Positions 989-26,761 of a DNA stretch of 32,000 nt are shown in pieces. Made by a program: the position numbers and the translations under genes. Position 1 is the first letter of the stretch; every line of letters begins with the position of its first letter. Origin of the DNA: an uncultured Pseudomonadales bacterium (GTDB taxonomy: Bacteria > Pseudomonadota > Gammaproteobacteria > Pseudomonadales > Azotimanducaceae); the NCBI GenBank assembly GCA_958296165.1, contig OY282447.1:3601154-3633153 (forward strand), given 5' to 3'. A model generated the notes under the pieces. It saw only the letters and a list, made by a program, of their open reading frames with translations. It ran no database searches and was not told where the DNA came from.

Positions 989-992
989 CGGC

Positions 993-5760: not shown

Positions 5761-7106
5761 ATCGGAAGCACAAGCACATCGTCCGAGCGGGACCATACGA
5801 GGCCTCATTCCCACAAGAACCTGAGGTAGATGATCTCTGTGATCACATCGAGCCGTGGCTATCGGCACTGTTTCAAGCGGAACACCTGAATCTACTGGTA
5901 GGAACCGGGCTAACGACAGCGATTGCGGGCGTCGCCGGAGCAAAGGCCCCGGAGATGGCGCCAACCATTATCAAGGATGTGGAGTACGCAAGGTCCGTGA
6001 CCAAGGTCGCCGCAGAGAGCGCACGCCGACTAGGGCGAGGTGAACCCAACTTGGAGGACCAGCTAAGAGCAATTGGACAGCTAACTGAAGGCTTGAACGT
6101 ACTGGCAAGTGATCCCGAAGCGGATGAGGATCATACCTTCCGCCAGTTGTACGAAAAATGGAAAACCAAACAGGAGCATGTGCTGCGATCACTCCTAGCC
6201 AGCGTGCTTTCGACCGAGCGCGAGATCGATCAAGCGCTAGCAGAGGATGACGCCACAGGTAAAGCTGATCGGGTTAGGAGGTGTCTCGGTGGATTTCTGT
6301 TGCCGTTTGCTAGTCGCGTCGCTACGAGGGAGCGGCTGCATATCTTCACGACGAACTATGACCGATTAATAGAGTTCAGTTGTGATCTATTGGGGCTACG
6401 GACTATCGATAGGTTCGTTGGCAGTTTGTTTCCCGTCTTCCGTGCGACTCGATTGGACTTCGATATGCACTACAATCCCCCAGGAATTCGTGGTGAACCT
6501 CGGTACCTCGAGGGCGTAGTGAGACTCACCAAACTGCATGGCTCACTGGATTGGCGAGTGAGCGATGAACACTCTGGTTATACGGAAGTGTGGCGGTGTG
6601 GCCTTCCTTTCGGAGCGCCAGACGACCACCCAGTCGCTGAGAAGCCTCTCAACCGTGAACTACTCGTCTATCCGAATTCGGCGAAGGACGTCGAGACGTT
6701 AGAGTATCCATATGCTGAGCTCTTCCGCGATTTCGCCGCAGCAACTTGCCAGCCCAATACCGTAGTCGTTACCTACGGATATGGTTTTGGCGACGACCAC
6801 CTAAACCGCATCTTGCTTGATATGCTGAGCATTCCGTCTACCCATCTTGCGGTGATATCCTACGATGACGCTGACGGCCGCTTGTGGTCGTTTTGCGACC
6901 GTGCTGCACGCGATACTCAAATCACTCTGCTTGTTGGAGACCACTTCGGAGACCTTTCTACGCTAACAAATCACTACCTACCTAGGCCGGCAATCGACAG
7001 GACCACGTGGCGTATGGTGGATCTGCAAAATAGGCGCGGTAGAACGGCTCAAGATATGCCTAGTGCGGCCGAGAGCGGTGGCCCTACGGAAGAAGACTTC
7101 GAATGA
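5757..7106 (+). CDS. SIR2-like (SIR2_2/PF13289-type) protein, partner of HerA
   Basis: Motifs LNLLVGTGLTTAIAG, LHIFTTNYDRLIEF, LTKLHGSLDWRV and GYGFGDDHLNRIL match the defence-type SIR2_2 pattern. TTG 5757 is the only in-frame start before the first motif and overlaps the pglXI stop (TTGA). GGGGG lies at 5746-5750. Confidence 0.75.
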   Translation: MNRKHKHIVRAGPYEASFPQEPEVDDLCDHIEPWLSALFQAEHLNLLVGTGLTTAIAGVAGAKAPEMAPTIIKDVEYARSVTKVAAESARRLGRGEPNLEDQLRAIGQLTEGLNVLASDPEADEDHTFRQLYEKWKTKQEHVLRSLLASVLSTEREIDQALAEDDATGKADRVRRCLGGFLLPFASRVATRERLHIFTTNYDRLIEFSCDLLGLRTIDRFVGSLFPVFRATRLDFDMHYNPPGIRGEPRYLEGVVRLTKLHGSLDWRVSDEHSGYTEVWRCGLPFGAPDDHPVAEKPLNRELLVYPNSAKDVETLEYPYAELFRDFAAATCQPNTVVVTYGYGFGDDHLNRILLDMLSIPSTHLAVISYDDADGRLWSFCDRAARDTQITLLVGDHFGDLSTLTNHYLPRPAIDRTTWRMVDLQNRRGRTAQDMPSAAESGGPTEEDFE

Positions 7107-9204
7107 CCTCATTGATCGAGGCACTCGGTGGCCGGGCCATAGGGAGAGTTGACTATGTGTCCGCTGAACGAATCGTGGTACTTCTCGAGTCTGACGCGCC
7201 CCAAGCGGTCGCGCTCAACACTGGAACCCCAGTCGGATTCCCACGCATCAATACCTACGCACTAATTCGCAGTGAGAATGGCTATATCGCCTGTATCATT
7301 TCTTCCGTGCGCACGGCACGACTACCTTACGCTAAGAGGGGAGCCACACACCAGGACTTTGACATAGTCGATCTACCATTTCCGTCCCGGCTGATGGAAC
7401 TAGTGCCCATTGGCACCTTGAAATCTACGTCGATGGATGGAGATATCGCATTTCGAATTCAACGTGGTGTCGATACTTTCCCTTCGGTCGGAGATGCTGT
7501 CGTGCTTCCCAACGCCAATCAACGAAGGGCGCTGGTGGCTGGAGATGCCGGAAATCAAGGTGGACGTGTTCTTATTGGTCGCTGCCCGACGGCGGAGATG
7601 GCGCCCGTGTACGCGGATCCGGACAAGCTGTTTGGTCGACATCTCGCTATCCTAGGCAACACTGGATCTGGCAAATCGTGCTCGGTGGCAGGTCTTATAC
7701 GATGGTCCCTCGAAAGTGCTAGGCGTCATCGGGAGAAGAAACGTCGCGATCCAATGCCTAATGCCCGATTCATCGTACTTGACCCGAACGGAGAGTACAG
7801 TGCGACGTTCAAGGATCAGGAAGCCCGTATTTTTCGGGTGGAACCTGACGTGGGCGAAAGGCATCTGCAAGTGCCAGCATGGTTGTGGAATGGTGAAGAG
7901 TGGACGGCTTTTACGGGTGCCGCACCCGGGGTACAGCGTCCGGTCCTATTGCAAGCAATTAGGCGACTACGCAACACAGAAGGACCTCCAGATGCATTTG
8001 AGACGAAGGTCAGGGTACGAGTAAAGCAATATAGGGATCAGTTAGATGTGGCTATACAAAGCGGTGACCATCAGCGCCGAGGATACCGTGAGGGAGTCGC
8101 AGCAGTTCTTCTGAATATCAAGGCTGATTTTGAAGGTTTGAACGACGATAGGAGCTGTGGTGATGAGAGCCTCCGGGGGATTCTCTCCGACGTTTCTAAC
8201 TCTGCCGGTCGAATTGAGATGGACGCACGCCAGCAGTCAAATCCTGGGTATCATGATCCGTTCTCCCACATGGCTATAGAAGAGGTAATTCATTGCCTTG
8301 AAAAGGTTGGGGATGCTGTTGGAATAGCCGATAGACAGGGCCAGCTGAGTGAAGATACTCCCTACGAATTTATGGTGGAGCAGCTTCCAGCATACGTCGA
8401 AGCTCTCGCCGCCGCGCAGGCCGGCCGTGACATGGCGCCGTTTATCGACTCGATGAATCTTCGTATCAAGGGAATCTTGGCGGATGGTCGGCTCTCATCA
8501 ATACTTCGGCCTGCTACCTCGCCTCCCATTTCATTAGGTGGATGGTTGAAGGAGTATGTTGGTGGTGACCAGGCGGCGAATGGCCCGATAGCTGTGTTGG
8601 ATCTTTCACTCGTGCCGTCAGAGGTCATTCATGTGGTTGTGAGCGTCTTAGCAAGGATGATCTTTGAGGCAGCTCAGAGGTACCGCCGGAAGGAAGGCCA
8701 CAATCTGCCAACCACATTGGTTCTGGAAGAGGCGCACACATTTGTGCATCGTGACTTGTCCACCGAATCGGCGACTCCCGCAGGACGAGCTTGTGCGAGG
8801 ATTTTTGAGAAAATTGCGAGAGAGGGCGTAAATTCGGTCTCGGGTTAGTCTTGGCGTCACAAAGACCGTCAGAGATGGCACCTACAGTGCTCTCGCAGTG
8901 CAATACCTTTCTATTACACCGCTTGGTCAACGACCGTGACCAAGAGCTAGTTAGACGCCTTGTTCCTGATGGCTTGGCGTCTCTGTTACGTGAACTACCT
9001 AGCCTCCCAACCCGACGCGCAATGCTACTAGGTTGGGCGGCTCCGGCACCGACTCTTGTGGAGATTCGACGGGTCTCAGAGGAACATAGGCCCCGATCTC
9101 CAGACCCTGACTTTTGGGACGTCTGGACGGGAGAGAAGGAGCGTTCAATAGATTGGGTCAAAATCGCTCAAGAGTGGCAAGCGCCGAGAGAGCCGTGGTC
9201 GTGA
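7103..9204 (+). pseudogene. herA: HerA/DUF87-type ATPase split by a 1-nt frameshift near 8827 (ORFs 7103-8848 and 8851-9204)
   Basis: ATG 7103 overlaps the SIR2 stop (ATGA). Walker A is LAILGNTGSGKSCS and Walker B is TLVLEEAHTF. Frame 1 ends ...FEKIAREG-VNSVSG-stop. Frame 2, open from 8809, continues RKFGLGLVLASQRPSEMAPTVLSQCNTFLLHRLVNDRDQE, the canonical HerA continuation. Confidence 0.8.
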
Positions 9205-9325
9205 GTGAGGGGCGCGTGGGGATAGCAGAGATGGTTTCATCGATCTACGGTACTCGGACTAGCTGGTTTTAGAGAGCGTTTAGTTGACATGTTGATATCC
9301 CCCCGTGGGTGGTAGAGTCTTAGCG

Positions 9326-9643
9326 ATGCGTGCGGTAGAGGATGTGCAATTGAGCCGGTTTAAGAAGCCCTCGGTGGCGGTTCCAGACCGTGATGGTGAG
9401 AGCGACAACGAGGGCGTAGCAACAGCGTTGGCGAGGTCTGTGACAGACATTGATTCGGATTGGCGCGAGCGGATAGAACTCGCGAAACGCGCTTACGAAG
9501 ACGGCAAGGAGTTGCGCGAAGGCAAGCCAATCACCTTCCGAGTGGCCCGGCCCTTGATTCTCGGCGATGGATCGAACGCCTACGTCGGGAATGTCCCGCC
9601 TGCTGCGGCACTGCGAACGCCATGCCGGAAGTACCAGTCTTGA
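9326..9643 (+). CDS. Hypothetical small protein (uncertain)
   Basis: 105 aa from ATG 9326 (MRAVEDVQLSRFKK...RERIELAKRAYEDGKELREGKPITFRV). The composition looks protein-like, but there is no recognisable motif and it overlaps the tail of the opposite-strand fragment. Confidence 0.3.
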   Translation: MRAVEDVQLSRFKKPSVAVPDRDGESDNEGVATALARSVTDIDSDWRERIELAKRAYEDGKELREGKPITFRVARPLILGDGSNAYVGNVPPAAALRTPCRKYQS

Positions 9644-9687
9644 GCGTCCGCATAATGCTGTCGGCCTTGCAAGTCGTCGGCTGCCAT

Positions 9688-10014
9688 CTACTCGTCAAGG
9701 GCGCGATTGCACGCGATCGCCGCCGGGGCTGGGCAAGGATCGGGCCAAGGAAAGCGCTCCTCGTGCAGCAACGCCGCCCAGTTGGTCGCGAGCCAGTCCA
9801 AGAATGGCGCTAGATACCAGCCGACAAAGGGCTGTTGCTGTTCACCTAGCCTAGTCGCCGTGACGTTTACGCCTGCCACATGCATCGTCAACTGTCCCAT
9901 AGACCAGCCGTAGGCGGCTGGTCGCCGCTCGGGCGGCTCGCAATCATCAACCCAGCGAATGCCAATCTGCACGGTCGCAGGGTCACCGAAGCGCATCCAA
10001 TCGGGCATCGCCAC
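9688..10014 (-). CDS. Hypothetical protein, probably the decayed 5' part of a larger gene
   Basis: 108-aa ORF (MAMPDWMRFGDPATVQIGIRWVDD...GWYLAPFLDWLATNWAALLHEERFPWP). The reading continues plausibly past an in-frame TAG (9690-9688) as MAADDLQGRQHYADAQDWYFRHGVRSAAAGGTFPT, up to a second TAG at 9582-9580. Confidence 0.4.
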   Translation of the reverse strand: MAMPDWMRFGDPATVQIGIRWVDDCEPPERRPAAYGWSMGQLTMHVAGVNVTATRLGEQQQPFVGWYLAPFLDWLATNWAALLHEERFPWPDPCPAPAAIACNRALDE

Positions 10015-10330
10015 TTCCTATCGCCCACCAACGTCGTCCGTGTTTATCGCTCGTCGTGTCTTGCGCGGCGTCACGTAGCCTCCTCGAGCAAGAACATAGC
10101 GGACGGTCGCAACATATCGTCTAAGGCGTAGGATACCAGTGCGAGGTGCCTCCTTATTCGAGGCTCGGGGCTCCGCACCCGATCGCGTTGGCAAGTAAAT
10201 GTCCTCTAACCGTAGTGCTAGGTGCTCCGAGTGGGAAGAGTAAATGTCCGTTGGCTCGTACAGTAGGGCGTCTGCGCCCGGTCACGAGCGTTGGGCACCG
10301 TAGCACCAATGCTGCATTCAGGGCTCCTTG

Positions 10331-12307
10331 ATGCCTGCCGCTAGTTGGCAAGACGCCATCCTCAGCGAGTTCACGCCCGGCGTCTCGCCGCTCACCGTAG
10401 TGGCAGACCCGGATGGCCTGCTGCAAGATGACGAAATCCTTGCCACTCTACAGAAACGCGGGTTCTCCCTCCTCCGGTTCGAGGACCCCATCGCCTTCCG
10501 CTATGCCTACGAGTCGCGCTACCGCCGGCGTGAAGCACAGGCGGATGCGGAGGGCCTTGTCGTCTTGGTGCCGGCACCACCAGCCGAACTGGACAACCTG
10601 CCCCACGACATCCTCACCCGCAGCCGGCGCCTAGCGTTCAGCCTTGCCGAGCTGTTCCCCAGCCTGAACCAAGCCGTGGTGTCGGCGCTGGAACCGGCGG
10701 ATCGTGCCGCGCTCTACGAGGCGGCGTCCCTCCAGCAGCCAGCGGCCTTGGGGGAGAAGGCCAGCAAGGATTTCGTGCTGCATCACGTCTTCGGCGTCGT
10801 CCCGGACCTGTTGCGAACGCCGGCTGCGCTGCTGTCCGTGCTTCTTCGCCGGCACTATGCCGGTCGGCGCGTTCCACCGGCGTTGGATGCGCGGTTCATC
10901 GAAGCGATCAAGGAGCGTTTCCAACATTGGCCGCTTGGCCGCATCGTGCCGGATCGGGAAGCGTTCTTCGATTTTCTGCAGCAGCGTTGGCGGATGTTTC
11001 TGGATGCGAGAGCGGAAGGCACAGGGGCCGTTAGGGAGGGCACCGATGCCCTCGCTAGCGTGCTGCCTTTCGATCATAAGGATGTGCGCGTTTACATAGA
11101 CAACCTGTTCGCGGAAGGTCTTCTGCACCCCATCTCCCACTGGCAGGCGGCCACGCTGAGCAAAACGTGGCTTGGCGTCGGCGTTCAGTGGGATGCTCGG
11201 CAAGATGCCGCCGCCCGGCTGGATCGGCTGCTCGCCATCGCTGCGGAGTCGCTGCCGGAACAGGAAGCCCGGCATCAGGATTGGTTTCGATTCGCCAAAG
11301 TGTGGGCTAGGGTCGCAGCACTCACGCAAGAGCCCGACGGCAAGCCAAACGAGAAACAACAGCAAGCAGTAGACGGCTTGCGAACGCGCATGGACGCAGC
11401 GTTCAACCGCTGGGTGGCAAGCCGCTACGCGAGCCTCGCCAGCTTGCCGCCGAACCCGCCGGTGATGCTGCACCACGTCCCGCGCTTCCTCGCACGGGAG
11501 ATCGGCGACGACACAACGACGAAAGCCGCACTGGTGGTTGTGGACGGGCTGGCTCTGGATCAATGGGCTGTCATGCGGCAGCAACTCGCCCAACAGCGCC
11601 CCGGCTGGCGGTTTCGGGAAGACGCCGCGTTCGCTTGGGTGCCCACGATCACGTCCGTTTCCCGCCAAGCCATCTTCGCCGGCAGCCCGCCGTTCTACTT
11701 TCCGAACAGCATCCACGCCACGCACAAAGAGGACATGCTGTGGCGAAGGTTCTGGACGGATCAGGGAATACAAGGCGCCGTCTACGCGAGAAGCCTCGGC
11801 GATGGCCCTTTCGAGGACGTGGCCGCGCTCGTTGACCAGCCCAACGTTCGTGTGGCCGGCTTGGTGGTAGACAAGGTGGATCGCATCATGCACGGCATGA
11901 CGCTTGGCACAGCAGGCATGCACAATCAAGTGCGGCAATGGGCGTCGCAAGGGCATTTCGCGGCACTGCTAGACCTGCTGTTCGCGCATGGGTTCCGCGT
12001 CTACATCACGTCGGACCACGGCAACGTTGAGGCCGCAGGTTGTGGACGGCCAAACGAAGGTGCGGTGGCGGACGTGCGCGGCGAACGGGTGCGCGTGTAC
12101 TCCGAAGAAGGCTTGCGCCGCAGCGTTGCCGATCGCTTCGCCGGTGCGTGGTCGTGGCCGGCGGAAGGTTTGCCAGCAGGCCATCTGCCCCTGCTCGCGC
12201 CCGGCCGCAAGGCATTCGTGCGCGAAGGTGAAAGGGTGGTGGCGCATGGGGGCGTGTGCATTGAGGAACTCATCGTGCCGTTCGTGCAGGTGGTTGCGGG
12301 CATATGA
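10331..12307 (+). CDS. pglZ: PglZ-domain alkaline-phosphatase-superfamily protein (BREX)
   Basis: ALVVVDGLALDQW, VPTITSVSRQAIFAGSPP and ITSDHGNVEA are PglZ/alkaline-phosphatase core motifs. About 658 aa. ATG 10331 is preferred over the TTG at 10328. Confidence 0.85.
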   Translation: MPAASWQDAILSEFTPGVSPLTVVADPDGLLQDDEILATLQKRGFSLLRFEDPIAFRYAYESRYRRREAQADAEGLVVLVPAPPAELDNLPHDILTRSRRLAFSLAELFPSLNQAVVSALEPADRAALYEAASLQQPAALGEKASKDFVLHHVFGVVPDLLRTPAALLSVLLRRHYAGRRVPPALDARFIEAIKERFQHWPLGRIVPDREAFFDFLQQRWRMFLDARAEGTGAVREGTDALASVLPFDHKDVRVYIDNLFAEGLLHPISHWQAATLSKTWLGVGVQWDARQDAAARLDRLLAIAAESLPEQEARHQDWFRFAKVWARVAALTQEPDGKPNEKQQQAVDGLRTRMDAAFNRWVASRYASLASLPPNPPVMLHHVPRFLAREIGDDTTTKAALVVVDGLALDQWAVMRQQLAQQRPGWRFREDAAFAWVPTITSVSRQAIFAGSPPFYFPNSIHATHKEDMLWRRFWTDQGIQGAVYARSLGDGPFEDVAALVDQPNVRVAGLVVDKVDRIMHGMTLGTAGMHNQVRQWASQGHFAALLDLLFAHGFRVYITSDHGNVEAAGCGRPNEGAVADVRGERVRVYSEEGLRRSVADRFAGAWSWPAEGLPAGHLPLLAPGRKAFVREGERVVAHGGVCIEELIVPFVQVVAGI

Positions 12308-13053
12308 ACGAGAGAGCCAGCCAAGTCGGCGTCAGCCAGCGCCTCCGCTTGGAGTGGCTGGAAGCCACCGCCAACCTGATGCTGGCTGGCAATGACGTCG
12401 CCGTCATTCGAGACGCTCTGGACGACATGCTGGCAAGCAAGCTTTCCGTCGGGAGCGGCAGCGAGCGAGGCAGCCGGCAGAAGACGATCACCATCTTGAC
12501 GAAGATTTGGCGCAACGTGCCGCCGGACGTTAAACCGTTGCGCAACGATGCGTTGCAGATGCTGCCGGCGTTGAACCTGAACCATCGCCACGCCGTTCAT
12601 TGGGGCATGACGCTGGCCGTCTACCCGTTCTGGGGCATGGTGGCCGCTCACACTGGCGGATTGCTGCGCTTGCAGGGCACCGCTGCCGCAGCCCAGGTTC
12701 AGCGCCGCATCCGAGAACAATACGGCGAGCGGCAGACGGTCTCCCGAGCCGCAGCGCGCGTCTTGCGATCGTTCATCGACTGGGGCGTGTTGGCGGACGC
12801 GGACGGGAAGGGGCTCTATGTACGAGGGAGGCAACGTGAACTGGGAGATGCGAGAGTTGCTGCTTGGTTGGCGGAGGCCATGCTGCGCTCGGGGCCGCTA
12901 GTGCGCGGCTCAGCCAGCCCCCTACGCCACCCCACGTTGTTCCCGTATCGCCTGCCGCACTTGGCCGCCTCGCAGTTGGCCACGCACTCTTGCCGCCTTG
13001 ATGTGCTGCGCCAAGGGCTGGACGAAGAAGTGCTGATGTTGCGGCGCAAATAG
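12304..13053 (+). CDS. Small BREX accessory protein in the BrxA position (BrxA/BrxE-like, name uncertain)
   Basis: 249-aa ORF. Its ATG 12304 overlaps the pglZ stop (ATGA), so it is translationally coupled. The terminal position matches brxA of type 3 BREX. No motif I can verify by eye. Confidence 0.55.
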   Translation: MNERASQVGVSQRLRLEWLEATANLMLAGNDVAVIRDALDDMLASKLSVGSGSERGSRQKTITILTKIWRNVPPDVKPLRNDALQMLPALNLNHRHAVHWGMTLAVYPFWGMVAAHTGGLLRLQGTAAAAQVQRRIREQYGERQTVSRAAARVLRSFIDWGVLADADGKGLYVRGRQRELGDARVAAWLAEAMLRSGPLVRGSASPLRHPTLFPYRLPHLAASQLATHSCRLDVLRQGLDEEVLMLRRK

Positions 13054-13313
13054 CCCGTTGCCTGATCTGCGCGTTCACCGACGTGCATGAACGGGAAGGC
13101 GGAAGCTCGGTACTCGAACAGCGGTTTCCGCAGCCGCTACGGTTAGTCGTCCGCCGGCGGCAGATGAACGTGGAGCAATCACAGGCCGTGACTTACCACA
13201 AGGAGTACCGATGGTCCCACTGTCGTCTTGATGGGATGGTCCGCCCCGCTTCATTCGCGCGGGCCTCGGAGGCCAGAATAACGTGGGTTTCCCATCAACC
13301 AACGGAGCGAACC

Positions 13314-13531
13314 ATGAACGAGATTAAACGGATCGGCATGGATCTGGGCAAGCGGGTCTTCCACGTCACGGCGGCGGACGCGAAGGGCAGGATCGTCGAG
13401 CGCAAGCGGCTGCGGCGCGCGGGGCTGCAGTCCTATCTGGCGAAGCTGCCGGTGGGCTGCGAGGTGGCGATGGAGGCGTGCGGGAGCGCGCATCAACGGT
13501 GCCGCCTAGCGTCGCGGCTGGGCACGAAGTA
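13314..13531 (+). mobile_element. IS110-family transposase gene, N-terminal fragment only
   Basis: GGAG at 13304-13307, then MNEIKRIGMDLGKRVFHVTAADAKGRIVERKRLRRAGLQSYLAKLPVGCEVAMEACGSAH..RLASRLG. HEV follows after a 1-nt frameshift (ctgggcacgaagta would need one extra c). IS110-like sequence ends at 13531. Confidence 0.75.
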
Positions 13532-13693
13532 GGCGAGCTTGCCTGTCGGCGCTATCCCGGTGGGCATTTGATCGCGCACGATGACGAGCATCAGCAGGAG
13601 GCGCTGGAAGAGACCCGGCAGGTCATCGATGCGGGCACCGAAGTCGACGTCGCGGGCTACCGCGACAAAGTACACCCGCTGCAAGCGCCGTAG
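13532..13693 (+). pseudogene. Fragment resembling the N-terminal region of a DUF2779 (Cas4-like PD-(D/E)XK) protein
   Basis: GELACRRYPGGHLIAHDDEHQQEALEETRQVIDAGTEV resembles the remembered DUF2779 pattern VGELAxxxFPGGxxI...EEALxxTxxLL. It lacks its own start and decays after about 55 codons. Confidence 0.3.
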
Positions 13694-14296: not shown

Positions 14297-16600
14297 ATGC
14301 TGGACAGGCTTGTCCATTCGATTAGGCGCATCGTGTGTCGGCTGTGGCATACGGTGAAGCCCTCAGCTCCGGCACCTACCGCTTCCGTGTCCCTTACGCC
14401 GCGATCTGACATGCCGGCGACCACCGCGGCTACCGAAGTCACGACAGACAGTGACGAGGCGACCCCACCGGCCCGAACCCAACCAGATCAAGGAAACGCC
14501 CTGCGTGAAACGCATGAGCAACCCGACCATGTCCGGCCGGCTGCGATTTCGGGTGGGGGCGCGCTCCTATTGGCAGAAGACGCACTTGGGACGTCGGATT
14601 CGCATCCCGCCAGTCCCGTCCAAGCTCCCCCGGGCCATACTAGTCACGTCGATAGCTTATCACGGCCGACCCCCGCTGACCGGGCGAAGAATCTTGAACC
14701 TGTCCAGAACGACATCTCGGACGAGCGGTCTGAACGCTCGCACGGACAACCGAAGCGGCGACTCAAACCCGTTGAGATGGGAGGTCAGCGGGCAGAGAGA
14801 ACGGACGGCCAAGCACCAACTCGGCGAGAACCGCAGGCCGCCCGCGCGGAGCTAACTTGCCGCAAGAACGCCGAGCTCCACCAATGGGAGCTCGTTCTAT
14901 CTGTTGGTGGTGAAAGCAGCGTTAAGGACGTACAGCACGATGGGAGGACGTTGGACTTGGCGACCGGAGAACACGCCCTCTCATCTTTCTGCAGCAATGT
15001 CACGGTCGTTTTCGCCAGCGGCGAGCGGAAGGAGATTACGTTAGAGGACAAAGGCGAACCACTCGTTTTCAAGCTGAAGAATTGGAAAGGAGACGGTCGA
15101 AAAGTCAAAGGTATCGGTGTGGGGCACTATATCGTCATCGCACCAAGGGCTTACAAGCGCACCGGGCGTGTGCCTGTCGAACAAGAGGCTTGCACAGATC
15201 CAAACTTCACCGCCCACTACTTCCTCAGCGACGGAAAGTCGCCGCACGAAATCGGTGGCTTTCGAGAGCGTGACGTGCCATCGACGCAGTCCGTCATTGA
15301 ACTGACGGGCAAGATCGCGTTCGATGACTCAGAACACGGCGATCTGTTTGTCGGTGATGCTCCAAGCCTGATGCACTCGAACGGCATTGTCTGGGCGCGG
15401 GTTGGCGAGGAGGGCGGTTGGAGGGGCGAGAGCTTCAAGACGAACAAGCGCGATGTCGGCACGGTTCTGGGTAGCCGCCAAGGACGGTTTTTTGTCCGTG
15501 TATACGATGCTGACATGGAACTGCTGGACAGCGACCAGTTCAGATATCTGCGTGATCTCGAGGAGATTCTCGTGAATGGAAAGCCATACTCCGAAGACCT
15601 ATTGCTCGTTCCTACAACTGCTGGACATCTGCCGACCGAGGTGCGATTCATCGGTGTCGACGGTGCCAACGTTCATCCAGTATTGTCGCCTGAAGCCAAA
15701 CGAACGAACGTTAGAGGTACGAGTGTTCTGGCCGATCCCCATCCGGATGCCGATCGCATATCATGTAAAATAGAGGCCGACACGGGTAGCGTCGACGTTG
15801 TATTGGCTCTACCACGCGTTTGGTGGCACATTGCACAAGAAGACATGGATGCCTTCGAGTGGAGCGATGTGCCGACTGTCATGACGCGCCAGGAGTTCTG
15901 CAATCGCGGTTACGACGGCGTAGCCATGCGACTGCGAGCTCCACGCCGAATCAAGTCGGTACGCGTCGGCTTCGACGACCAACATGATCGCAGCTATCCC
16001 TTGAAACTCGGGGAGATAAACGGTCTGATTCCACTGCTCGACTTTGTCAACTACCCGCAGATCGATCAACGTCTGAGTGAGGATGCATCACTCGACATTG
16101 AGTGCGATGGAGTCACAGCGACCGTCATCCGCATTGCCGCCGACCCTATACCTGCTATCACTTCCTTCGTGTGCGAACCCGCAAAGACCGTCGCTGGGGA
16201 GCCAACCACATTGCGTTGGGAGGCCCGTAACGCCAGTGAGGCCAGAGTTGTCATCAACCGCAGTCCCCAAGTCGGTACTCTTGAATCGAACGGGAGCCTA
16301 GAAGTTCGACCGTTGAAGACCACGACCTACACGCTGGCACTCATCGTGCCCGGCGTCCCCGACGTGACGAAGGCCGTCACGGCGACGGTGTTGTCTTTGG
16401 TCGAGACCGAGAGCCGATACGCTCGCGTAAAGTGCCTCGGTGGATGGAGGCGCGGCAAAGGATTCAGCCGCCGCGAACTTGAGGCAGCTGGCTTGACGAC
16501 CGCCGATGCCAACCGTCGGTCGATCTTCATTGACGGACGGCGTAGAAGCATGCATCGGGAAAATGTCGAGACCATCGGGAGGAGGTCGGTCAATGGCTGA
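14297..16600 (+). CDS. Unknown 767-aa partner of the DUF1998 helicase (disordered N-terminus, beta-rich core, Ig-like module, eL13-like basic tail)
   Basis: Single long ORF whose stop overlaps the helicase start (ATGGCTGA). The first ~190 aa are Pro/Thr/Asp/Arg-rich, and an alternative start exists at ATG 14777. The Ig-like stretch is ITSFVCEPAKTVAGEPTTLRWEARNASEARVV..TTTYTLALI. The tail is GKGFSRRELEAAGL..IFIDGRRRSMHRENVETI. Confidence 0.7.
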   Translation: MLDRLVHSIRRIVCRLWHTVKPSAPAPTASVSLTPRSDMPATTAATEVTTDSDEATPPARTQPDQGNALRETHEQPDHVRPAAISGGGALLLAEDALGTSDSHPASPVQAPPGHTSHVDSLSRPTPADRAKNLEPVQNDISDERSERSHGQPKRRLKPVEMGGQRAERTDGQAPTRREPQAARAELTCRKNAELHQWELVLSVGGESSVKDVQHDGRTLDLATGEHALSSFCSNVTVVFASGERKEITLEDKGEPLVFKLKNWKGDGRKVKGIGVGHYIVIAPRAYKRTGRVPVEQEACTDPNFTAHYFLSDGKSPHEIGGFRERDVPSTQSVIELTGKIAFDDSEHGDLFVGDAPSLMHSNGIVWARVGEEGGWRGESFKTNKRDVGTVLGSRQGRFFVRVYDADMELLDSDQFRYLRDLEEILVNGKPYSEDLLLVPTTAGHLPTEVRFIGVDGANVHPVLSPEAKRTNVRGTSVLADPHPDADRISCKIEADTGSVDVVLALPRVWWHIAQEDMDAFEWSDVPTVMTRQEFCNRGYDGVAMRLRAPRRIKSVRVGFDDQHDRSYPLKLGEINGLIPLLDFVNYPQIDQRLSEDASLDIECDGVTATVIRIAADPIPAITSFVCEPAKTVAGEPTTLRWEARNASEARVVINRSPQVGTLESNGSLEVRPLKTTTYTLALIVPGVPDVTKAVTATVLSLVETESRYARVKCLGGWRRGKGFSRRELEAAGLTTADANRRSIFIDGRRRSMHRENVETIGRRSVNG
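16577..16585 (+). promoter_or_regulatory. Shine-Dalgarno sequence for the helicase gene
   Basis: GGGAGGAGG lies 7 nt upstream of ATG 16593, inside the 3' end of the upstream ORF. Confidence 0.6.
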
Positions 16601-19600
16601 CACGGAAGACATATGGCGTTGGCCGGAAATGGTTCGTCAACGCTACGAGAACTATCTGAGAACTTCGTTCTTCTTTAGGGACCCGCAGCTAAGGGCGTCT
16701 TTTCAGACGGCACTACAAGAAGACGGTAGCCTTCTCAAGGGGCCGTTTACTGAAGTGTCCGGAGGCTTCGAGACTGGCACAGATACGCGGGCGTTGGCCG
16801 AAGAATGCTTTCCATGCAAGAGCGCGAGTCTTGTTCCGGCGCTGATTAGTGGCCCGCTATATGTGCATCAAGAACGAGCCGTGCGCTCGACATATATCGA
16901 CGAACAGAACATTGTCGTCGCGACCGGCACTGCTAGCGGTAAGACGGAGAGTTTCCTCTATCCAATCCTGTACGAGTTGTATCGCGAGCACCTCGCAGGA
17001 GAACTCGATGAACCGGGTGTGCGGGCAATGATCTTGTACCCGATGAACGCGCTGGCGAACGATCAGAGGGAGCGCCTAGGCGAGATATGCGGCGAGTTGC
17101 GCGCCGCTGGATCGGGATTCAAGCCGACGTTCGGCCAATATATCGGACAGACGCCCTATAACGCTAAGGACAGCTGGCGTAACGCCGCAGCACGAGAGGA
17201 AGAACGCTTAGCCGGAGAACTCGTCTTCCGGGACGAGATGCGAAATGCACCTCCTCACATCTTGATGACGAATTATTCGATGCTGGAGTACCTCCTCATC
17301 CGCCCAGACGACAGCCCTCTGTTCGACGGTAGTCGAGGTGCCCGGTGGAAGTTCATCGTGCTTGACGAGGCGCACCAGTATCGCGGTGCCAAAGGCATGG
17401 AAATGGGCATGCTGATTAGGCGGCTAAAGCAGCGGCTCCGAGACGGCGGCCGGCGCGAACCGTTCCGCTGCATCGCGACCAGCGCAACCCTCTCCTCCGG
17501 CGAAAGCGAGAAGGACAAGCAAGTCGTAGCCGAGTTTGCGAACGAGCTCTTCGGAGAGTCATTTTCGGCATCGGGCGTCATTTTCGGCAAGCCACAGCGG
17601 ACAGTGGCCGATGGACGTCCGCGCCGCTACCATGCCTTCCTGCGTGCCTTGGAGGGGGCGTTTCTCGTCCACAGAGGAGGCGTAGATGCCGTCGTGCTCA
17701 ACCGTCGAGGCGGAAGCGACGAAGGGTCCGGAGACCCGTTGGAGGTCGCACTCTGCCGCGAATGCGGCCAGCACTACTACGTTGGCCGAGAGCGGGGCGG
17801 AAAGCTAAAGGAGGCCGTTCGAGATCCCAGCCAGCCTGACTTCGGCGTGACCTATTACCTACCTACGGAGGAGGGCGGCGAGCAGCTATGCAGGTGCTGC
17901 GGCGCGCTGTCGAAGTCTAAACCCGGCTGCGACTGCGGAGCGACGGTTCGCGTGAAGAAATGCCAGTCCCGAGATGGTCAACCCGATCAGTTGAAGCAAT
18001 GCGAAGCGTGTGGCTATCAACGTGGCGGCATCGGCGACCCGGTGCAGGAGATAGTGCATGGTTCGGACGGACCCAATAGCGTCATTGCGACGGCGCTGCA
18101 CGAACTGTTGCCGGAAGGCAGGCGCAAAGTGCTGGCGTTTGCCGACAGCCGTCAAGAGGCCGCGTTCTTCGCATGGTATGCCGAGGACTCGTACGAGAAG
18201 CTGCGTGACCGAAATCTCATGCTGCGCGCCATCAGATCTGAAGAGGTCGATCCTGAAGGCCTGTCCGTAGATGACCTCAGAAACCGGCTGCGTAAGCAGT
18301 GGCAGGAGGCCGGCCTGTTTAGCGGCGCTGACACCGGTGAACAGCAGAACCGAAAGGTGATGACGTCGATCCTTCGAGAGGCGCTGACTGAAGAAAAGAG
18401 ACTCTCCTTGAGCGGTGTGGGCTTGATCAAGTGGTCCGTGCGGATCCCAGCACATTTGAGCTTGCCGGAGACGATGCGACAGCCGCCATGGAACTTCACG
18501 GATGGTGAGGCGCGCCGCCTTGCTGAATATCTCCTCGACGAGTTGCGGCCCCGCCGGGCAATGAGCCTTCCTAGCGACGCAGGAACACCCAGTTGGGACG
18601 ACATAGCCGCACGGCCTCAGCAGGCGTGCAGTGTCGGCGCGCCAAAGGGCGTTCGGAAGGTCTTCCAGTGGGGAGCCCCCCAATCGGCGGTCGTGAAGCA
18701 TTTTCTACGCCGATTGCTCGCGGACACGGATCTGCCGGATAAACAGAAGCAGGAGATGTCGACGAAACTCATGAAGGATGTTTGGCGCATGTTGACTAGT
18801 GCCGAAGAGCCGATCCTCAAGCGTGTAACTGCGAGCACATTTCGACTCGATCCGCGCTGGCTGCGGATTGAACTTGCCGCACACGACGAGATCTGGGAGT
18901 GCGACACCTGCGCGACTTTGAGCAACCACAACATCCGTGGCGTCTGCCCTCGGTATCGGTGCCCAGGAACCTTGTCAGCCGCGGGTCAGGCGCATCTCAA
19001 TACGAACCACTATCGAATCCTCTACGAGAGCGCTAAGCTGCCGCCTGAGCTGCGTGCGGAAGAACACACGGCACAGATCGAAAGCGACGAAGCACGCCAA
19101 AGACAGGACAGGTTCAAGACAGGACGCGTCCACCTTCTGAGCTCCTCCACTACGTTCGAGGTCGGCGTCGATCTCGGTAATCTGGAAGCTGTGTTTCTCC
19201 GCAACGTACCACCCGAGCCGTTCAACTACGCGCAGCGAGTTGGGCGAGCGGGTCGACGAGGGACTCCGGGGTTGGCGCTGACCTATTGTCGCCGCAACCC
19301 GCATGATCTCTATCATTACGAGGATCCGGTCGACCGCGTGATTGGAGGCGCGGTGCATCCTCCGCGCCTGCGGATGACTAACGATAAGATCATTCTACGG
19401 CACATGGTTGCCACCACTTTGGCGATGTTCTTCCGGGAGAATGGCGAACGCTTTAACAACGTGGAGAACTTCGTCGGAGACTGGTCAACTCCCCACGCGG
19501 CAGACGACGTCAGGACGTTCTGCCAAGGCAATAGATCGTTGGCGGACTCGTTTCGCCAGACCGTTCCCGAGAATATGCATCGCCGGGTGGGCCTCGGGAA

Positions 19601-20822
19601 TGACGCTTGGATTGACAACGTAGCGGGGCCGCAAAGCCGTTTCGGGCAAGTAGAAGCGGAGGTGTGCGCCGACTATCGGCATATGAAGACGCTGAGGGAA
19701 CAGCTCTTCGAACAAGGCGAGGACGGTCGTATGAGCCGCATTGGGAGTCGCATGAGAACGATCGCCAAGGAACGAACCTTGAACTTCCTCTCCCGCAAGG
19801 CCGTCATCCCAAAGTATGGATTTCCCGTAGATGTTGTCGAACTCGACACGCGGCCGGCAGACGGCAATCCGACTGGCGTCGTACTCCAGCGAGACCTATC
19901 TCAGGCCATCGCCGAGTACGCCCCCGGAGGCAAAGTGGTGGCCAATAAGCTGGAATGGGAGTCCTACGGCGTGAAGGCCGTGACCGGCAAGGCGTGGCCA
20001 GTGCGCTTTTACCAATATAGTGACGCACGCGACTTCGAGCAATGGGACGATGGTGATCCGTCCATCCCGCCCAACGGGCGAAAGTACCTCATTCCAGAGT
20101 TCGGTTTCGTAACGCCGCTGTTCGAAAGAGCCAAAGAGCCTCACGGGCGAGTTCGGCGGCTCTATACAACGCGGCCTTTTTTCCGCGGCTTCGAACCGGG
20201 TGCCCATCCAGAAACGGAAATCGTCCATGGCGTCCAAGTGACGAAGGCGGTACCGGGAACTCTGGTCATCCTTTGCGAAGGCAAGAACAGGAAGGGGTTC
20301 TATATCTGCACTTCCTGCGGCGCGCACATGACGGGCGCGAAGGGAAAGCACCGGTCGCCGTGGGGTTCCGATTGCGGAGGCACGCTTAGGAACTTCTCGC
20401 TTGGTCATGAATTGGTCACAGATATCGTTCGCCTGCAGTTTCCGCGACTCGGCGGCGAGTGGGACGCCTACTCCGTCGCCTACGCCCTTCTACTCGGTGC
20501 GGCGACAGCACTGGACGTGCCGGATACTGATCTGAACGTGACGATTGCTCGCGGGGACCATTCGAAAGAGTCCGCAATCGTGCTGTACGACGACGTTCCC
20601 GGCGGCGCAGGGCTGGTGGTGCAACTGGAACGGGAGAGCGTCTTCGACGAGGTGCTGAGCAACGCTAGAGAGCGGGTCCAAGGCAATTGCGGCTGCGACT
20701 CAAGCTGCTACGGCTGCCTACGCAGCTACCGTAACCAGTTTGCGCACCCGTATCTTGACCGAAAGGCGGCGCTGGCGACCTTGAGCTTCGACGACACGAC
20801 ACCGCGCACAAGGATGGCCTAG
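16593..20822 (+). CDS. DEAH-box SF2 helicase with multiple Cys clusters and a C-terminal DUF1998 domain (DruE-like, or a DrmA-DrmB-fusion-like protein)
   Basis: Helicase motifs ATGTASGKTESF, FIVLDEAHQYRG, ATSATL and QRVGRAGRRG. Cys clusters CRECG..CRCCG..CDCG, CEACG, CDTC..CPRYRC and CTSCG..DCGG. DUF1998 signature VPGGAGLV...GCDSSCYGCLRSYRNQFAHPYLDR. The start is taken at ATG 16593 (strong SD) rather than 16506 of the ORF track. Confidence 0.88.
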   Translation: MADTEDIWRWPEMVRQRYENYLRTSFFFRDPQLRASFQTALQEDGSLLKGPFTEVSGGFETGTDTRALAEECFPCKSASLVPALISGPLYVHQERAVRSTYIDEQNIVVATGTASGKTESFLYPILYELYREHLAGELDEPGVRAMILYPMNALANDQRERLGEICGELRAAGSGFKPTFGQYIGQTPYNAKDSWRNAAAREEERLAGELVFRDEMRNAPPHILMTNYSMLEYLLIRPDDSPLFDGSRGARWKFIVLDEAHQYRGAKGMEMGMLIRRLKQRLRDGGRREPFRCIATSATLSSGESEKDKQVVAEFANELFGESFSASGVIFGKPQRTVADGRPRRYHAFLRALEGAFLVHRGGVDAVVLNRRGGSDEGSGDPLEVALCRECGQHYYVGRERGGKLKEAVRDPSQPDFGVTYYLPTEEGGEQLCRCCGALSKSKPGCDCGATVRVKKCQSRDGQPDQLKQCEACGYQRGGIGDPVQEIVHGSDGPNSVIATALHELLPEGRRKVLAFADSRQEAAFFAWYAEDSYEKLRDRNLMLRAIRSEEVDPEGLSVDDLRNRLRKQWQEAGLFSGADTGEQQNRKVMTSILREALTEEKRLSLSGVGLIKWSVRIPAHLSLPETMRQPPWNFTDGEARRLAEYLLDELRPRRAMSLPSDAGTPSWDDIAARPQQACSVGAPKGVRKVFQWGAPQSAVVKHFLRRLLADTDLPDKQKQEMSTKLMKDVWRMLTSAEEPILKRVTASTFRLDPRWLRIELAAHDEIWECDTCATLSNHNIRGVCPRYRCPGTLSAAGQAHLNTNHYRILYESAKLPPELRAEEHTAQIESDEARQRQDRFKTGRVHLLSSSTTFEVGVDLGNLEAVFLRNVPPEPFNYAQRVGRAGRRGTPGLALTYCRRNPHDLYHYEDPVDRVIGGAVHPPRLRMTNDKIILRHMVATTLAMFFRENGERFNNVENFVGDWSTPHAADDVRTFCQGNRSLADSFRQTVPENMHRRVGLGNDAWIDNVAGPQSRFGQVEAEVCADYRHMKTLREQLFEQGEDGRMSRIGSRMRTIAKERTLNFLSRKAVIPKYGFPVDVVELDTRPADGNPTGVVLQRDLSQAIAEYAPGGKVVANKLEWESYGVKAVTGKAWPVRFYQYSDARDFEQWDDGDPSIPPNGRKYLIPEFGFVTPLFERAKEPHGRVRRLYTTRPFFRGFEPGAHPETEIVHGVQVTKAVPGTLVILCEGKNRKGFYICTSCGAHMTGAKGKHRSPWGSDCGGTLRNFSLGHELVTDIVRLQFPRLGGEWDAYSVAYALLLGAATALDVPDTDLNVTIARGDHSKESAIVLYDDVPGGAGLVVQLERESVFDEVLSNARERVQGNCGCDSSCYGCLRSYRNQFAHPYLDRKAALATLSFDDTTPRTRMA

Positions 20823-22967: not shown

Positions 22968-25547
22968 CTAGAAGACATCTCCAATCAGCTTGCCGATCGC
23001 TTGGGCGTCAAGGCCCCCTCTGCGGTCGTCTGATGTCTTGATCAGCATGCGTTCAGCGTCTTTGCCTTCGCTCCAAGGCACTATTCCATCCTCCAGATAT
23101 TCCTCGCGTTTGCGCTCCCACCGTGCGTGATAGGCCGGATCATCCAACAACCCCAAGTGTTCCCAATAGTAGGTTGTCCCGCTTGCGTCGTCCTCGACCG
23201 TGAAGTCAGGGTAGCGAGTACGTCCTCCAGAGAGTACGAGGGGTTGCTCATATGCGTAGTCAACGCCGGCCGCATGCAGTTTGTCGGCGATGACGAGCTC
23301 GGACTTGGAACGCACAAGATCGCCTCTCTCGGTGCGATGGATGAGATCCTCCTCAAGGAACCTACTGGTGCCTACGTTGCGCACTTCCGTCGGAGCGGGC
23401 GGAGCGAACAGATTGGTCATACGGCGTGCGATCTCGGAGTACTCGTCGCCGACGTATCTCCGATAGTCTTCTATTGGTCCCTGATGAAGGACGACAAGCC
23501 TGTCCTGATGCCGTGTGAGTGCGGTGTAGAGCAACTCGCGAGAGAGCAGCGCGCACGGGTTCGTCAGCACTACAAAGGTCGTTTTGAATTCACTGCCTTG
23601 CGTCTTGTGTACTGTCAGGCAATAGGCGAGTTCGAGTGTGGGCTGTTGATCCTCGCCGAACTCATGCTCCAAAAAGCTGTACCTGCGGCCAAGTTGTCCC
23701 GCGAACTCAACCTCGGTCTTCCAAGGCGGCTTCCTGTATGGTGCTTTCTTTCCCTTGTATTGCCCGACGACAATCCCAATGTCGCCGTTGGCAATGTAGG
23801 ACTCGCCGTCACTTGGGTACACGTCCTTCTTTTTTCTTCTCTGATTACGAACATTGATTATCTTGTCGCCGTAGAGAATGCCTTGGGTACCCAAAGGCTT
23901 CGGAACTTTTCTATATCTTGCTTCTGTGAGCTTCCTCGCCTCCTTGCGAAACCGGGCCTGTATGGCTCGATTCAGCGCGTCCACACCGGTCATGCCGGCC
24001 CTACGCGGCGTTAGTACTTGCCAGCTCTCGACCTTGCTCGCGGCACCAGGGGAATGCTTGGACTCAGGATGGAAGAACGCGTGCGGCGCGTTACGATACC
24101 GAGAGCCGCCTATCGACTCCTCGAAGCCGAGCTCGTCTTCAGGGCTAGACAAGCCCAAGCTATGTACAAGCTCGTCCATGAGCCGTTGCTCTAGCTCTGC
24201 GCTGTGGTCCCACCGCACTAGGCGCAGCCTCTCGTCGGAGCGACCGAGGCTGCTGAGGGCGGAATCCGCCTCTGGGTCGAGCGGCTGGCCATTGAAGTGC
24301 GAAGCGAGCAAAACGTCAGGCCGTGCCGTACCCTGTTGTCGTCTCGGTACAGTTAGTTCGGCGTAACCGATCGAACAGCGAGGGAACTGACTCTCTACGC
24401 CATCAGGCCGGAGCTTCCGAACGATGTCTACGAAGGGGCGCCCGGCGCCGATTGGCGGAAGCTGGCGTGGATCGCCGACGAGCACGAGACGTTCTACGCC
24501 GGCGAGCGCGTCGAGCAAGGCAGCCAGTTGCTCTTCCGTAAGCATGGAACACTCGTCCACGACGACTGTGCGATAGTCTCGGCAAGGGGCTGCCTGTGGG
24601 TTAGGGAAATACCGCCCAGTTGTGCTGTCGTAGCGGTTCAGGCCGATGAGGAACTGCGCCAGAGTTTTGCCGTGGCCGCGTAGGCCAGTCCGTTCCTCTA
24701 GGCGTACGCGAGCTTTGCCGGTGGGTGCTAGCAGCAAGATTCCCTCGTCGGCAACCCCGCTGATCTCGCAGAGCATACGAATCAGTGTCGTCTTGCCGGT
24801 GCCGGCAGGGCCGATGAGGACAGAGAGGCGCGAAGAGAACACAACCTCCAATGCGGCGGCCTTCTCTTTCCTGCCTCGTCTCTCTGTATCTCGTTCAGCA
24901 TCATCTGCTGGTAGCGGGCCTAGGGTGTTCTCTATCAGCGCAGGCCATTCGTGCTCGGCCGCATGTTTGCGTCCGCGCACTCGCTTGTTCACCTCTTTGC
25001 CGATGATTGATCTGCAATTCGTTAGCCGATCGACTTGGTAGGCCGTTTCGCCTGCGGCCGTTGTCGTACATCGGACGACGGTATCGAAAGTGGCCTGCAT
25101 AGCGTCGAGTACGTTGTCGCCCAACGGACAAGGCGGTTGAAGCACGCGCTCTCTGGCACGCCGTATGACCCAACTCTTCGGTAGCAGTGTATGGCCCTCT
25201 AGGGCGGCATCCTCAAGAAGGTCTACAACTAGGGATCGCACTCTACGGCCGTCCGTAGGATCATCGACGCGAGACGGTTCGGTCATGGGAAACTGTTGAC
25301 GTAGAGCGTCGTCGGGGAAAACTCCTCGATCCACGGTGGCGAAGGCGATGGGATTTTCGGCAGTGCGGTCCTGTTCAAACAGGAGGAAGGGGTTTTTCAG
25401 AAGCTCGCGGTCCGCCGCTTCTACCCCAGCATCCTCACGCTTCTGCGGGTCGTAGAAGCGAAGTGCCTGATCTTCGCTCAGTGCACATCGGCTCAGGAGA
25501 TTGAGAAGTGCTCGACGATTCGGGCGAGATGCTGCCAGCCATTGCAC
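22968..25547 (-). CDS. RecD/TraA-like SF1 helicase (AAA_30 and UvrD_C_2 type) with a C-terminal PD-(D/E)XK-like nuclease domain
   Basis: Helicase motifs LIGPAGTGKTTL, VVVDECSML, LVLVGDPRQLPPIGAG and CLTVHKTQGSEF. The C-terminus VRSKSELVIADKLHAAGVDYAYEQPL...RYPDFTVED..YYWEHLG looks nuclease-like. It has a GTG start with no SD and overlaps the upstream ORF by 55 nt. Confidence 0.8.
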   Translation of the reverse strand: MQWLAASRPNRRALLNLLSRCALSEDQALRFYDPQKREDAGVEAADRELLKNPFLLFEQDRTAENPIAFATVDRGVFPDDALRQQFPMTEPSRVDDPTDGRRVRSLVVDLLEDAALEGHTLLPKSWVIRRARERVLQPPCPLGDNVLDAMQATFDTVVRCTTTAAGETAYQVDRLTNCRSIIGKEVNKRVRGRKHAAEHEWPALIENTLGPLPADDAERDTERRGRKEKAAALEVVFSSRLSVLIGPAGTGKTTLIRMLCEISGVADEGILLLAPTGKARVRLEERTGLRGHGKTLAQFLIGLNRYDSTTGRYFPNPQAAPCRDYRTVVVDECSMLTEEQLAALLDALAGVERLVLVGDPRQLPPIGAGRPFVDIVRKLRPDGVESQFPRCSIGYAELTVPRRQQGTARPDVLLASHFNGQPLDPEADSALSSLGRSDERLRLVRWDHSAELEQRLMDELVHSLGLSSPEDELGFEESIGGSRYRNAPHAFFHPESKHSPGAASKVESWQVLTPRRAGMTGVDALNRAIQARFRKEARKLTEARYRKVPKPLGTQGILYGDKIINVRNQRRKKKDVYPSDGESYIANGDIGIVVGQYKGKKAPYRKPPWKTEVEFAGQLGRRYSFLEHEFGEDQQPTLELAYCLTVHKTQGSEFKTTFVVLTNPCALLSRELLYTALTRHQDRLVVLHQGPIEDYRRYVGDEYSEIARRMTNLFAPPAPTEVRNVGTSRFLEEDLIHRTERGDLVRSKSELVIADKLHAAGVDYAYEQPLVLSGGRTRYPDFTVEDDASGTTYYWEHLGLLDDPAYHARWERKREEYLEDGIVPWSEGKDAERMLIKTSDDRRGGLDAQAIGKLIGDVF

Positions 25548-26761
25548 AGGTTGGGCTTCAGGAGTCGAGCCGTGGGCTGCGGCAGCGAAGTCGGGCTCGC
25601 CATCACGTCGTCGAGCAGCTTCCAGTGGTCGGACTCACCTTTACGCTCACCTAGTAGCTGGATGTCGTAGGCGATCAAGCTGCCATGTTGAAGGCCCCAC
25701 TCATAGCCGAAGGCAGAGAGCGCGGAGCCAAGACCAGGAAATGGGCCGCGGGCCTGCCACAAGTTGTTGAGCTCTGTGTTGACCCACGCCAGCGCTTTGT
25801 CCCATGGTCCTTCGACCTTGTCGCGGATACGCTGGAGAACGGCGGCGCAACGTATGAGGGAAGCCACTGCACCATCGTCGGTGAGCAATTCAGAGCCGTA
25901 GGAGTAGCTCTCGAACAACTCATTCGGCGCAAAGGCAACGAACTCCTCGGGATCAAGACCGTCTCGCTCCGCGAGTTTGGCTATCTCCTGATATGGGAAG
26001 ATGAATCCGTCTAGTTGGCCGGCCGGCGTCCTCAAAGAGTGACCGATGTTTCGTTCCCACAGTACGCTGCGAAGCGGAGGCTCGGCGGTGCTATAGCGGT
26101 ATTCGGTACTCCTACCCACGGACGTGACGCGCCCTACGCCCACGATGGTCCGCCCAGACTGCTCGGAGAGCGGCGTCTGCTTGGCGTAGAAGAAGCACAG
26201 CGACCCTTGCGGGCGGATTGCGCTGAAGAACGTGTCGAGCAACGCCAGCTGATTGTCCTTGTCCTGTATCCAAGCGGTGCGGAAGCCGAGGTTTGGTTCA
26301 CGGTCGGGCGCGTATCCAAGCTTCAGCTGCTCAGCTAGACCGGCATCCTGCCTTCGGTCGTTTCCCTCAACGTCCTCGCGCAGCATCCAGCGAAAAGGAA
26401 CGCAAGCGGCTGTGTATGGTGGTTGCACGAAGCGCGTGGACGCGAAATGACTATGCGTGTCCGATGTATGCACATACGGATGATCCACCGTGCGGACGAT
26501 CTCGAAGGGCGCCATGAACGAGGCCCGTTCCTTGATGCATGGCGGCATGTCCTTCTCGGTCAGCTGATCGACGCGCTTGCCAGCGCAGCTTGTCTCAATG
26601 TCGTCTCGACGACCGTCGGCGATTCGTCCAAGCACCAGACAACTGGTGTTGTTCAAAGGCATTGAGCACACCGTGCCGGCCCAGCCACTATCGTGCCAAG
26701 GCACCCGTATCGTGATGTGATGTCGTGGAAGCTGCCGTGCGCCCGCTGCGAGGTCGACCAA
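25493..26761 (-). CDS. Unknown 422-aa protein coupled to, or originally fused with, the helicase-nuclease
   Basis: TTG start 26761 is preceded by GAGGAG 7 nt upstream. N-terminal motif ITIRVPWHDSGWAGTVCSMPLNNTSCLVLGRI, with a central SLCFFYAKQ...RTIVGVGRVTSVG beta-rich core. Confidence 0.7.
   Translation of the reverse strand: MVDLAAGARQLPRHHITIRVPWHDSGWAGTVCSMPLNNTSCLVLGRIADGRRDDIETSCAGKRVDQLTEKDMPPCIKERASFMAPFEIVRTVDHPYVHTSDTHSHFASTRFVQPPYTAACVPFRWMLREDVEGNDRRQDAGLAEQLKLGYAPDREPNLGFRTAWIQDKDNQLALLDTFFSAIRPQGSLCFFYAKQTPLSEQSGRTIVGVGRVTSVGRSTEYRYSTAEPPLRSVLWERNIGHSLRTPAGQLDGFIFPYQEIAKLAERDGLDPEEFVAFAPNELFESYSYGSELLTDDGAVASLIRCAAVLQRIRDKVEGPWDKALAWVNTELNNLWQARGPFPGLGSALSAFGYEWGLQHGSLIAYDIQLLGERKGESDHWKLLDDVMASPTSLPQPTARLLKPNLCNGWQHLARIVEHFSIS

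Follow-up and report, generated by a model that had tools for sequence, protein, structure and literature searches.

An eL13-type ribosomal protein core in an exchangeable C-terminal slot of a helicase-coupled protein from a bacterial defence island

A bacterial protein of 767 amino acids (aa), encoded directly upstream of a YprA/DruE-type helicase, ends in a genuine eL13 (L13e) core, as established by both homology and fold. The two genes were found in a 32,000-nucleotide stretch from an uncultured Pseudomonadales bacterium (the whole of which is called the window here). This window is a defence island that also encodes BREX-3 BrxC, PglXI, PglZ and BrxA, SIR2-HerA and PDC-S68. To our knowledge, eL13 is restricted to eukaryotes and some archaea, and bacteria normally lack it. 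The 767-aa protein (hereafter the partner) is a member of a previously undescribed family in which the contents of the C-terminal slot are exchanged. The features of the two genes are as follows, in window coordinates:

14297-16600, + strand: gene for the 767-aa partner (helix, disordered linker, beta-sandwich chain, eL13 tail)
14297-14356, + strand: N-terminal amphipathic helix, aa 2-19 (predicted structure; hydrophobic moment)
14360-14812, + strand: disordered variable linker, aa 22-172 (pLDDT<50; approximately 18% column conservation)
14846-16147, + strand: conserved beta-sandwich (Ig-like) core, aa 184-617, net acidic (model, alignment)
16154-16396, + strand: last Ig-like domain, aa 620-700, optional across the family
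16409-16597, + strand: eL13 (L13e) core domain, aa 705-767 (pI 11.75, net charge +10)
16577-16600, + strand: helicase SD (16577-16585) and ATG-NN-TGA start/stop overlap, within the last codons of the tail
16593-20822, + strand: 1409-aa YprA/DruE-type SF2 helicase (Walker A, DEAH and motif VI intact; zinc clusters; MZB/DUF1998)

Identity and origin of the C-terminal domain

The first-pass annotation of this DNA had reported an eL13-like motif at the C-terminus of the partner, behind an Ig-like domain, and both observations are borne out. The tail matches Pfam PF01294 with 30.3 bits (cut-off 24.9; E = 4.7e-7), and a profile comparison with the eL13 of P. calidifontis gives an E value of 2.6e-16. 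The predicted structure of the partner (pLDDT 80 overall) places the Ig-like domain ahead of the tail, and the tail model superposes on residues 1-71 of 155 in eL13 with the core fold kept whole: a hairpin, two short helices, a strand and a long helix. Compared to ribosomal eL13, the tail lacks the C-terminal extension and falls below the NF008914 equivalog cut-off for the stand-alone, full-length protein (54.7 versus 96 bits); its gene lies outside a ribosomal operon, in a bacterium with no other L13e. PF01294 has this one match in the source genome and none in 14 control genomes. Whereas the eL13 of P. calidifontis (9e6q_AH) is an archaeal short form, here the domain is fused at the rear of a 767-aa bacterial protein.

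Chance resemblance of a basic region is ruled out by the Pfam and profile scores, the fold superposition and the selection described below. An assembly chimera or eukaryotic contamination is also ruled out: the genome has a completeness of 98% and a contamination of 1.8%, the junction is spanned by an independent contig, and the eL13 fusion recurs in many assemblies.

In an alignment of homologues, the tail columns are conserved on a par with the best block of the core. The top-conserved residues are GKGFS..E (76-89%) and D-x-RRR-x-x-H-x-x-N (82-86%), and the conserved arginines suggest an acidic ligand. Estimates of dN/dS, which are rough as synonymous sites are near saturation, are approximately 0.25 for the tail, 0.19-0.39 for the core and 0.54 for the linker, with 0.24 for aa 709-735 of the tail, outside the helicase overlap. 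By this measure, the tail is under purifying selection. A strain variant lacks 3 nt at window 16578-16580, inside the SD-bearing end of the tail, and matches the one-residue-shorter ends of two homologues (P0002 and P0003).

The closest kin of the tail are archaeal eL13 proteins. Beyond the family, the matches to the tail profile are short, unfused L13e proteins, 33-43% identical to the partner tail; several are labelled L13e by their sources, and one that was checked lies among archaeal-type genes. A short-protein search with the tail sequence returned no match, a limit of its sensitivity given that the other search found short L13e proteins. In an unrooted tree of 65 columns, these unfused proteins and the bacterial tails fall into separate groups (96/88), except that one family member lies with the unfused proteins. 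An archaeal source of the tail is likely from these comparisons; so short a tree, lacking a root, does not point to a particular donor lineage.

The helicase and its coupling to the partner

Pfam identifies DEAD, Helicase_C and MZB domains in the helicase, which ends approximately 30 aa past MZB, and neither a PLD nor another nuclease domain was found. Its best PADLOC models are DruE1 (E = 8.7e-160) and DruE3 (E = 5.3e-145), and its catalytic motifs are invariant in 61 relatives. These helicases form a tight clade of their own, with 59-78% identity within the clade versus 25-41% to DruE of types I and III-A. In a tree that carries a long-branch warning and holds no named III-B reference, the clade joins a Clostridium helicase of 1559 aa that has no PLD (99/97).

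The coupling of partner and helicase is fixed: the helicase lies directly 3' of the partner in 37 of 40 loci, and the remaining three reach contig edges. As noticed in the first-pass annotation, the SD and start codon of the helicase are embedded in the tail-coding sequence, and the resulting 8-nt overlap is common to most of the loci compared. A complex prediction using partner residues 326-767 and helicase residues 340-895 scored 0.27, against a mark of 0.32, and counts neither for nor against a contact.

Comparison with Druantia

The cassette resembles Druantia type III in having two coupled genes with the partner first, an SF2 helicase with zinc modules and MZB/DUF1998, a partner built on an Ig-like chain, and a defence-island setting. 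A DruE-type helicase without PLD is a likeness to III-B or 'type III-like' Druantia, a branch that mostly lacks a nuclease and has a compact DruE (Bell et al., 10.1101/2025.09.15.676423). In contrast to the III-A references, which are about 2100 aa in length, the 1409-aa helicase has no C-terminal PLD domains. The partner differs from DruH at both ends: it has a linker and eL13 in place of the N-terminal globular helical domain and the C-terminal helical domain, and its family is 490-950 aa in length versus about 1100 aa.

Identity with DruH was rejected, as no HMM or profile similarity was detected. PADLOC gave no match for the 767-aa partner; at an E value of 0.1, it had no match for any of 18 family members, while a true DruH matched 11 models. 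HHalign of the partner against one DruH, a comparison of low power with a single sequence on one side, gave 0.2%, and HHalign against three other helicase partners gave no match. PDB sequence, Foldseek, VIA and Atlas searches likewise found no DruH homology, and Atlas feature searches returned no match. The beta-sandwich chain modelled in the partner (aa 184-700) is composed of domains that resemble Ig-like folds generically, with no closer match, and the structure libraries searched returned no DruH structure. IcmE/DotG was also rejected as an identity, because the similarity consisted of summed weak repeat matches with no single significant stretch. The analogy to DruH is thus one of layout and Ig chain. 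We classify the cassette as a Druantia III-like system with an undescribed partner family, which would work like Druantia III and is not a member of it when membership is defined by DruH.

Two further properties of the partner are of note. The N-terminal helix has a hydrophobic moment of 0.92 and is amphipathic across the family (median 0.68 versus 0.39 in a linker control), making it a possible membrane or partner anchor. The charge of the protein is split between an acidic core and a strongly basic tail.

Distribution and mobility of the family

A total of 125 homologues were identified at E<=0.001 (33-96% identity). The tail is widely kept, with its motif within the last 90 residues in 96 of 120 homologues and, with an insertion, in two more. 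As 30 members retain the tail while lacking the last Ig domain, the tail is an independent module. The 40 genome loci are from Acidobacteriota, Dadabacteria, Verrucomicrobiota, Latescibacterota, Rhodothermales, Pseudomonadota, Binatia, Bdellovibrionota, Gemmatimonadota, Chloroflexota and Spirochaetota; the tail motif was one of the two search patterns behind this set, which biases tail frequency upward there. Judging from the record names, most are presumably from marine sponge symbionts. In this family, which spans at least 11 groups of phylum rank, the eL13 core is part of a bacterial protein of defence type and is maintained by selection.

Within the host genus, a member was found in only 2 of 31 other genomes, and mapping the phylum labels onto the partner tree takes 13 changes; the partner has therefore moved horizontally, and the spread of the cassette across phyla is patchy. 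No relative was found on viral contigs or plasmids. Four partner copies among the 40 loci are broken. In P0245, the whole core and Ig domain are duplicated in tandem ahead of one eL13 tail, and in P0244, L13e is fused to a helix-hairpin-helix domain.

Exchange of the C-terminal slot

About 80% of members carry eL13 in the slot. On an unrooted core tree of 78 rows, eL13 presence changes about 11 times, with other states scattered among eL13 members; the parsimonious reading of this tree is that eL13 is the ancestral as well as the commonest tail. A Dehalococcoidia chromosome encodes a uS17 tail (E = 2.7e-27), and mis-assembly is excluded as the host's own uS17, retained in the S10 operon, is only about 51% identical with no DNA-level match. 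A diverged, two-domain uS5 tail with a remodelled basic loop is present in two independent assemblies, with the helicase downstream. In two proteins, an inserted NusB separates the Ig domain from eL13 (E = 1e-20 and 2e-24), and one member has a MacB periplasmic domain. HTH-like and SH3-like tails have no firm family, and the HTH-like and basic helical tails have weak or no Pfam matches. No stand-alone source of the HTH-like, SH3-like or inserted modules was found in 3-5 genomes each. A Binatia genome also encodes the basic helical module by itself, in a small ORF (L066 1465-1770, - strand, 5' of an aminopeptidase-like gene) whose product is 41% identical to one alternative tail.

Additions are also found elsewhere in the protein. 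Two Acidobacteria members (L039 6424-10575 and L041 6319-10590) have sigma70 at the N-terminus, and a third (L050 3547-7572) looks alike: the domain is an RpoD-like sigma70 that is nearly complete, with regions 2-4 followed by a 1.2-like piece, and the eL13 tail is degenerate in all three. L040 (5935-10359) has a SNF2 helicase fused ahead of the family core, and its contig ends before the tail. L030 (8173-10755), P0098 and P0109, in a clade with Gemmatimonadota members, have a beta-rich insertion of approximately 50-70 aa inside eL13, the source of which was not found in 3-5 genomes.

If the tail were a relic kept for the start signals of the helicase, with other tails the products of neutral recombination, the SD and ATG within its last codons in most loci would fit, as would its loss in some of the tree changes and the decay of neighbouring defence genes. 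This is highly improbable, given that conserved motifs and a low dN/dS extend 30-140 nt upstream of the SD, that L025 replaced eL13 yet kept the junction with the helicase, that the tail outlasts the Ig domain preceding it, and that replacements are strongly biased to nucleic-acid-binding proteins.

Two of the captured domains, NusB and sigma70, are most like proteins of the host lineage. The NusB copies score 114 and 76 bits against two Gemmatimonadota versus 31-50 elsewhere, and P0185 groups with Gemmatimonadota members on the partner tree; the sigma70 copies are 62-63% identical to those of Acidobacteria versus 55% or less elsewhere. Sigma70 hosts, like the uS17 host, keep normal copies. 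Phage proteins act on both sigma70 (T4 AsiA) and NusB (the lambda N complex). The partner ends could be integrated baits, displaying copies of host expression proteins (uS5, uS17, NusB, sigma70) that phage proteins bind or modify, thereby triggering the helicase, which would account for the preference for expression proteins and for the host-like NusB and sigma70; eL13 would then have been inherited from an archaeal ancestor and still catch something in bacteria. DruH has been proposed to sense phage proteins (PMC13192584; PMC13316683). We nevertheless consider the bait reading, including its eL13 version, unlikely: the most common occupant, eL13, has no counterpart in bacterial hosts yet is under purifying selection, and bait should track the host, but the uS17 copy shows no host-lineage preference in five genomes. 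In plant integrated-decoy NLR receptors, a conserved immune scaffold has a variable slot holding copies of host proteins. The likeness to the partner family is an analogy only: there is no NLR/STAND module here, the most frequent insert does not stem from the host, and the bait role is putative. The tail series offers a way to ask whether integrated baits of the plant NLR kind also occur in bacteria.

Derived forms of the family

A derived group has lost the Ig core and retains a basic segment at the N-terminus, followed by an acidic linker that leads into the eL13 tail; no adjacent helicase was seen in the loci examined. These acidic, disordered proteins of 300-480 aa (L053 3988-5016; P0180, P0181, P0184, P0186, P0188, P0191, P0194, P0201, P0207 and P0217) are nested among the tails of the family. 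One, in a Rhodospirillaceae MAG, is annotated 'ribosomal protein L13e'. The eL13 fusion explains such stray labels on bacterial proteins.

The architecture of this group would suit a tail that binds rRNA, ribosomes or rrn antitermination complexes, so that the cassette is parked there and senses stalling or takeover. The eL13 core fold is kept whole, and the targets of uS5, uS17 and NusB are all rRNA or rrn transcripts. We regard such a tether as quite improbable, however, since the eL13 C-terminal extension is absent, fused uS5 or uS17 would compete with the native proteins, and YprA-family helicases act on DNA; in addition, no eL13 site is known on the bacterial 50S subunit. Tentatively, the cassette may be an immune sensor whose exchangeable slot serves for baiting or for targeting and repeatedly captured such pieces, eL13 from archaea and then uS5, uS17, NusB and sigma70 from its hosts; in this scenario, which we hold to be possible but doubtful, the captured pieces would detect phage takeover of expression or find the ribosome, firing the YprA helicase.

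Proposed role of the tail

The reading that we put forward, at approximately even confidence, is that the tail is a borrowed nucleic-acid clamp in a mobile anti-phage cassette that consists of two genes and resembles Druantia type III. In it, the helicase would be the effector, and the partner would stand in for DruH, serving as a scaffold of chained Ig domains without catalytic activity; its C-terminal slot would be occupied by a small, basic module that binds nucleic acid and was taken over from the gene-expression machinery. This module would grip exposed single-stranded or structured nucleic acid, be it replication intermediates of the phage or RNA where transcription and translation take place. 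The partner would then load or unlock the 3'-5' helicase at the gripped site, as proposed for DruH-DruE. We infer a defence role from the neighbourhood and the patchy distribution of the cassette; the ligand and the activation of the helicase are likewise proposals. Four properties favour a tail that binds nucleic acid: the tail is basic, its arginine motif is kept, the identified replacements are mostly nucleic-acid binders (uS17, uS5, NusB, HTH-like and basic helical tails), and its position corresponds to the ssDNA site of E. coli DruH, between Ig5 and the C-terminal domain (10.64898/2026.05.12.722862). Against the clamp, the remodelled basic loop of the fused uS5 and the MacB domain misfit simple nucleic-acid binding, the bias to ribosomal and transcription proteins over any basic domain is left unexplained, and the partner has no detectable DruH homology. 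A helicase without a nuclease also does not account for the killing step, though PLD-less DruE still defends (10.64898/2026.05.13.724758).

Two functions had been suggested in the first-pass annotation. RNA/DNA binding is the better supported; ribosome mimicry sits badly with the eL13 form, since bacteria lack this protein, but may apply to relatives with host-type uS5, uS17, NusB or sigma70. The role of the partner in Druantia itself is disputed in 2026 papers, which describe it as an ssDNA binder, exonuclease, scaffold or phage-protein sensor. Ribosomal proteins and exchangeable ribosomal-protein tails are not mentioned in the Druantia/YprA papers examined, and no paper linking L13e to Druantia, helicase or DUF1998 systems was found in a search that covered subscription journals thinly. 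The tail exchange suggests that a mobile defence cassette contains a swappable module not described before, and one scaffold with different tails is a natural series for testing whether the partner end sets specificity.

The surrounding defence island

The neighbouring defence genes of this island are decaying. A BREX type 3-like cluster (BrxC end, PglXI, PglZ and BrxA) occupies window 71-13053 and is interrupted by an AlbA_2/HATPase/Fic-like gene (951-2996) and the SIR2-HerA pair. HerA is split by a frameshift (7103-8848 and 8851-9204; overall 7103-9204), and no intact BrxHII ORF was seen between 9200 and 10300. By eye, 13083-13532 resembles a decayed start of an IS110-type transposase, with no Pfam match. 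The PDC-S68 RecD-like helicase (22968-26761, - strand) is broken into two ORFs of 422 aa and 859 aa, matching model positions 5-389 and 387-1218. The neighbours of the relatives include type I RM, McrBC, AbiEii, methylases and transposases.
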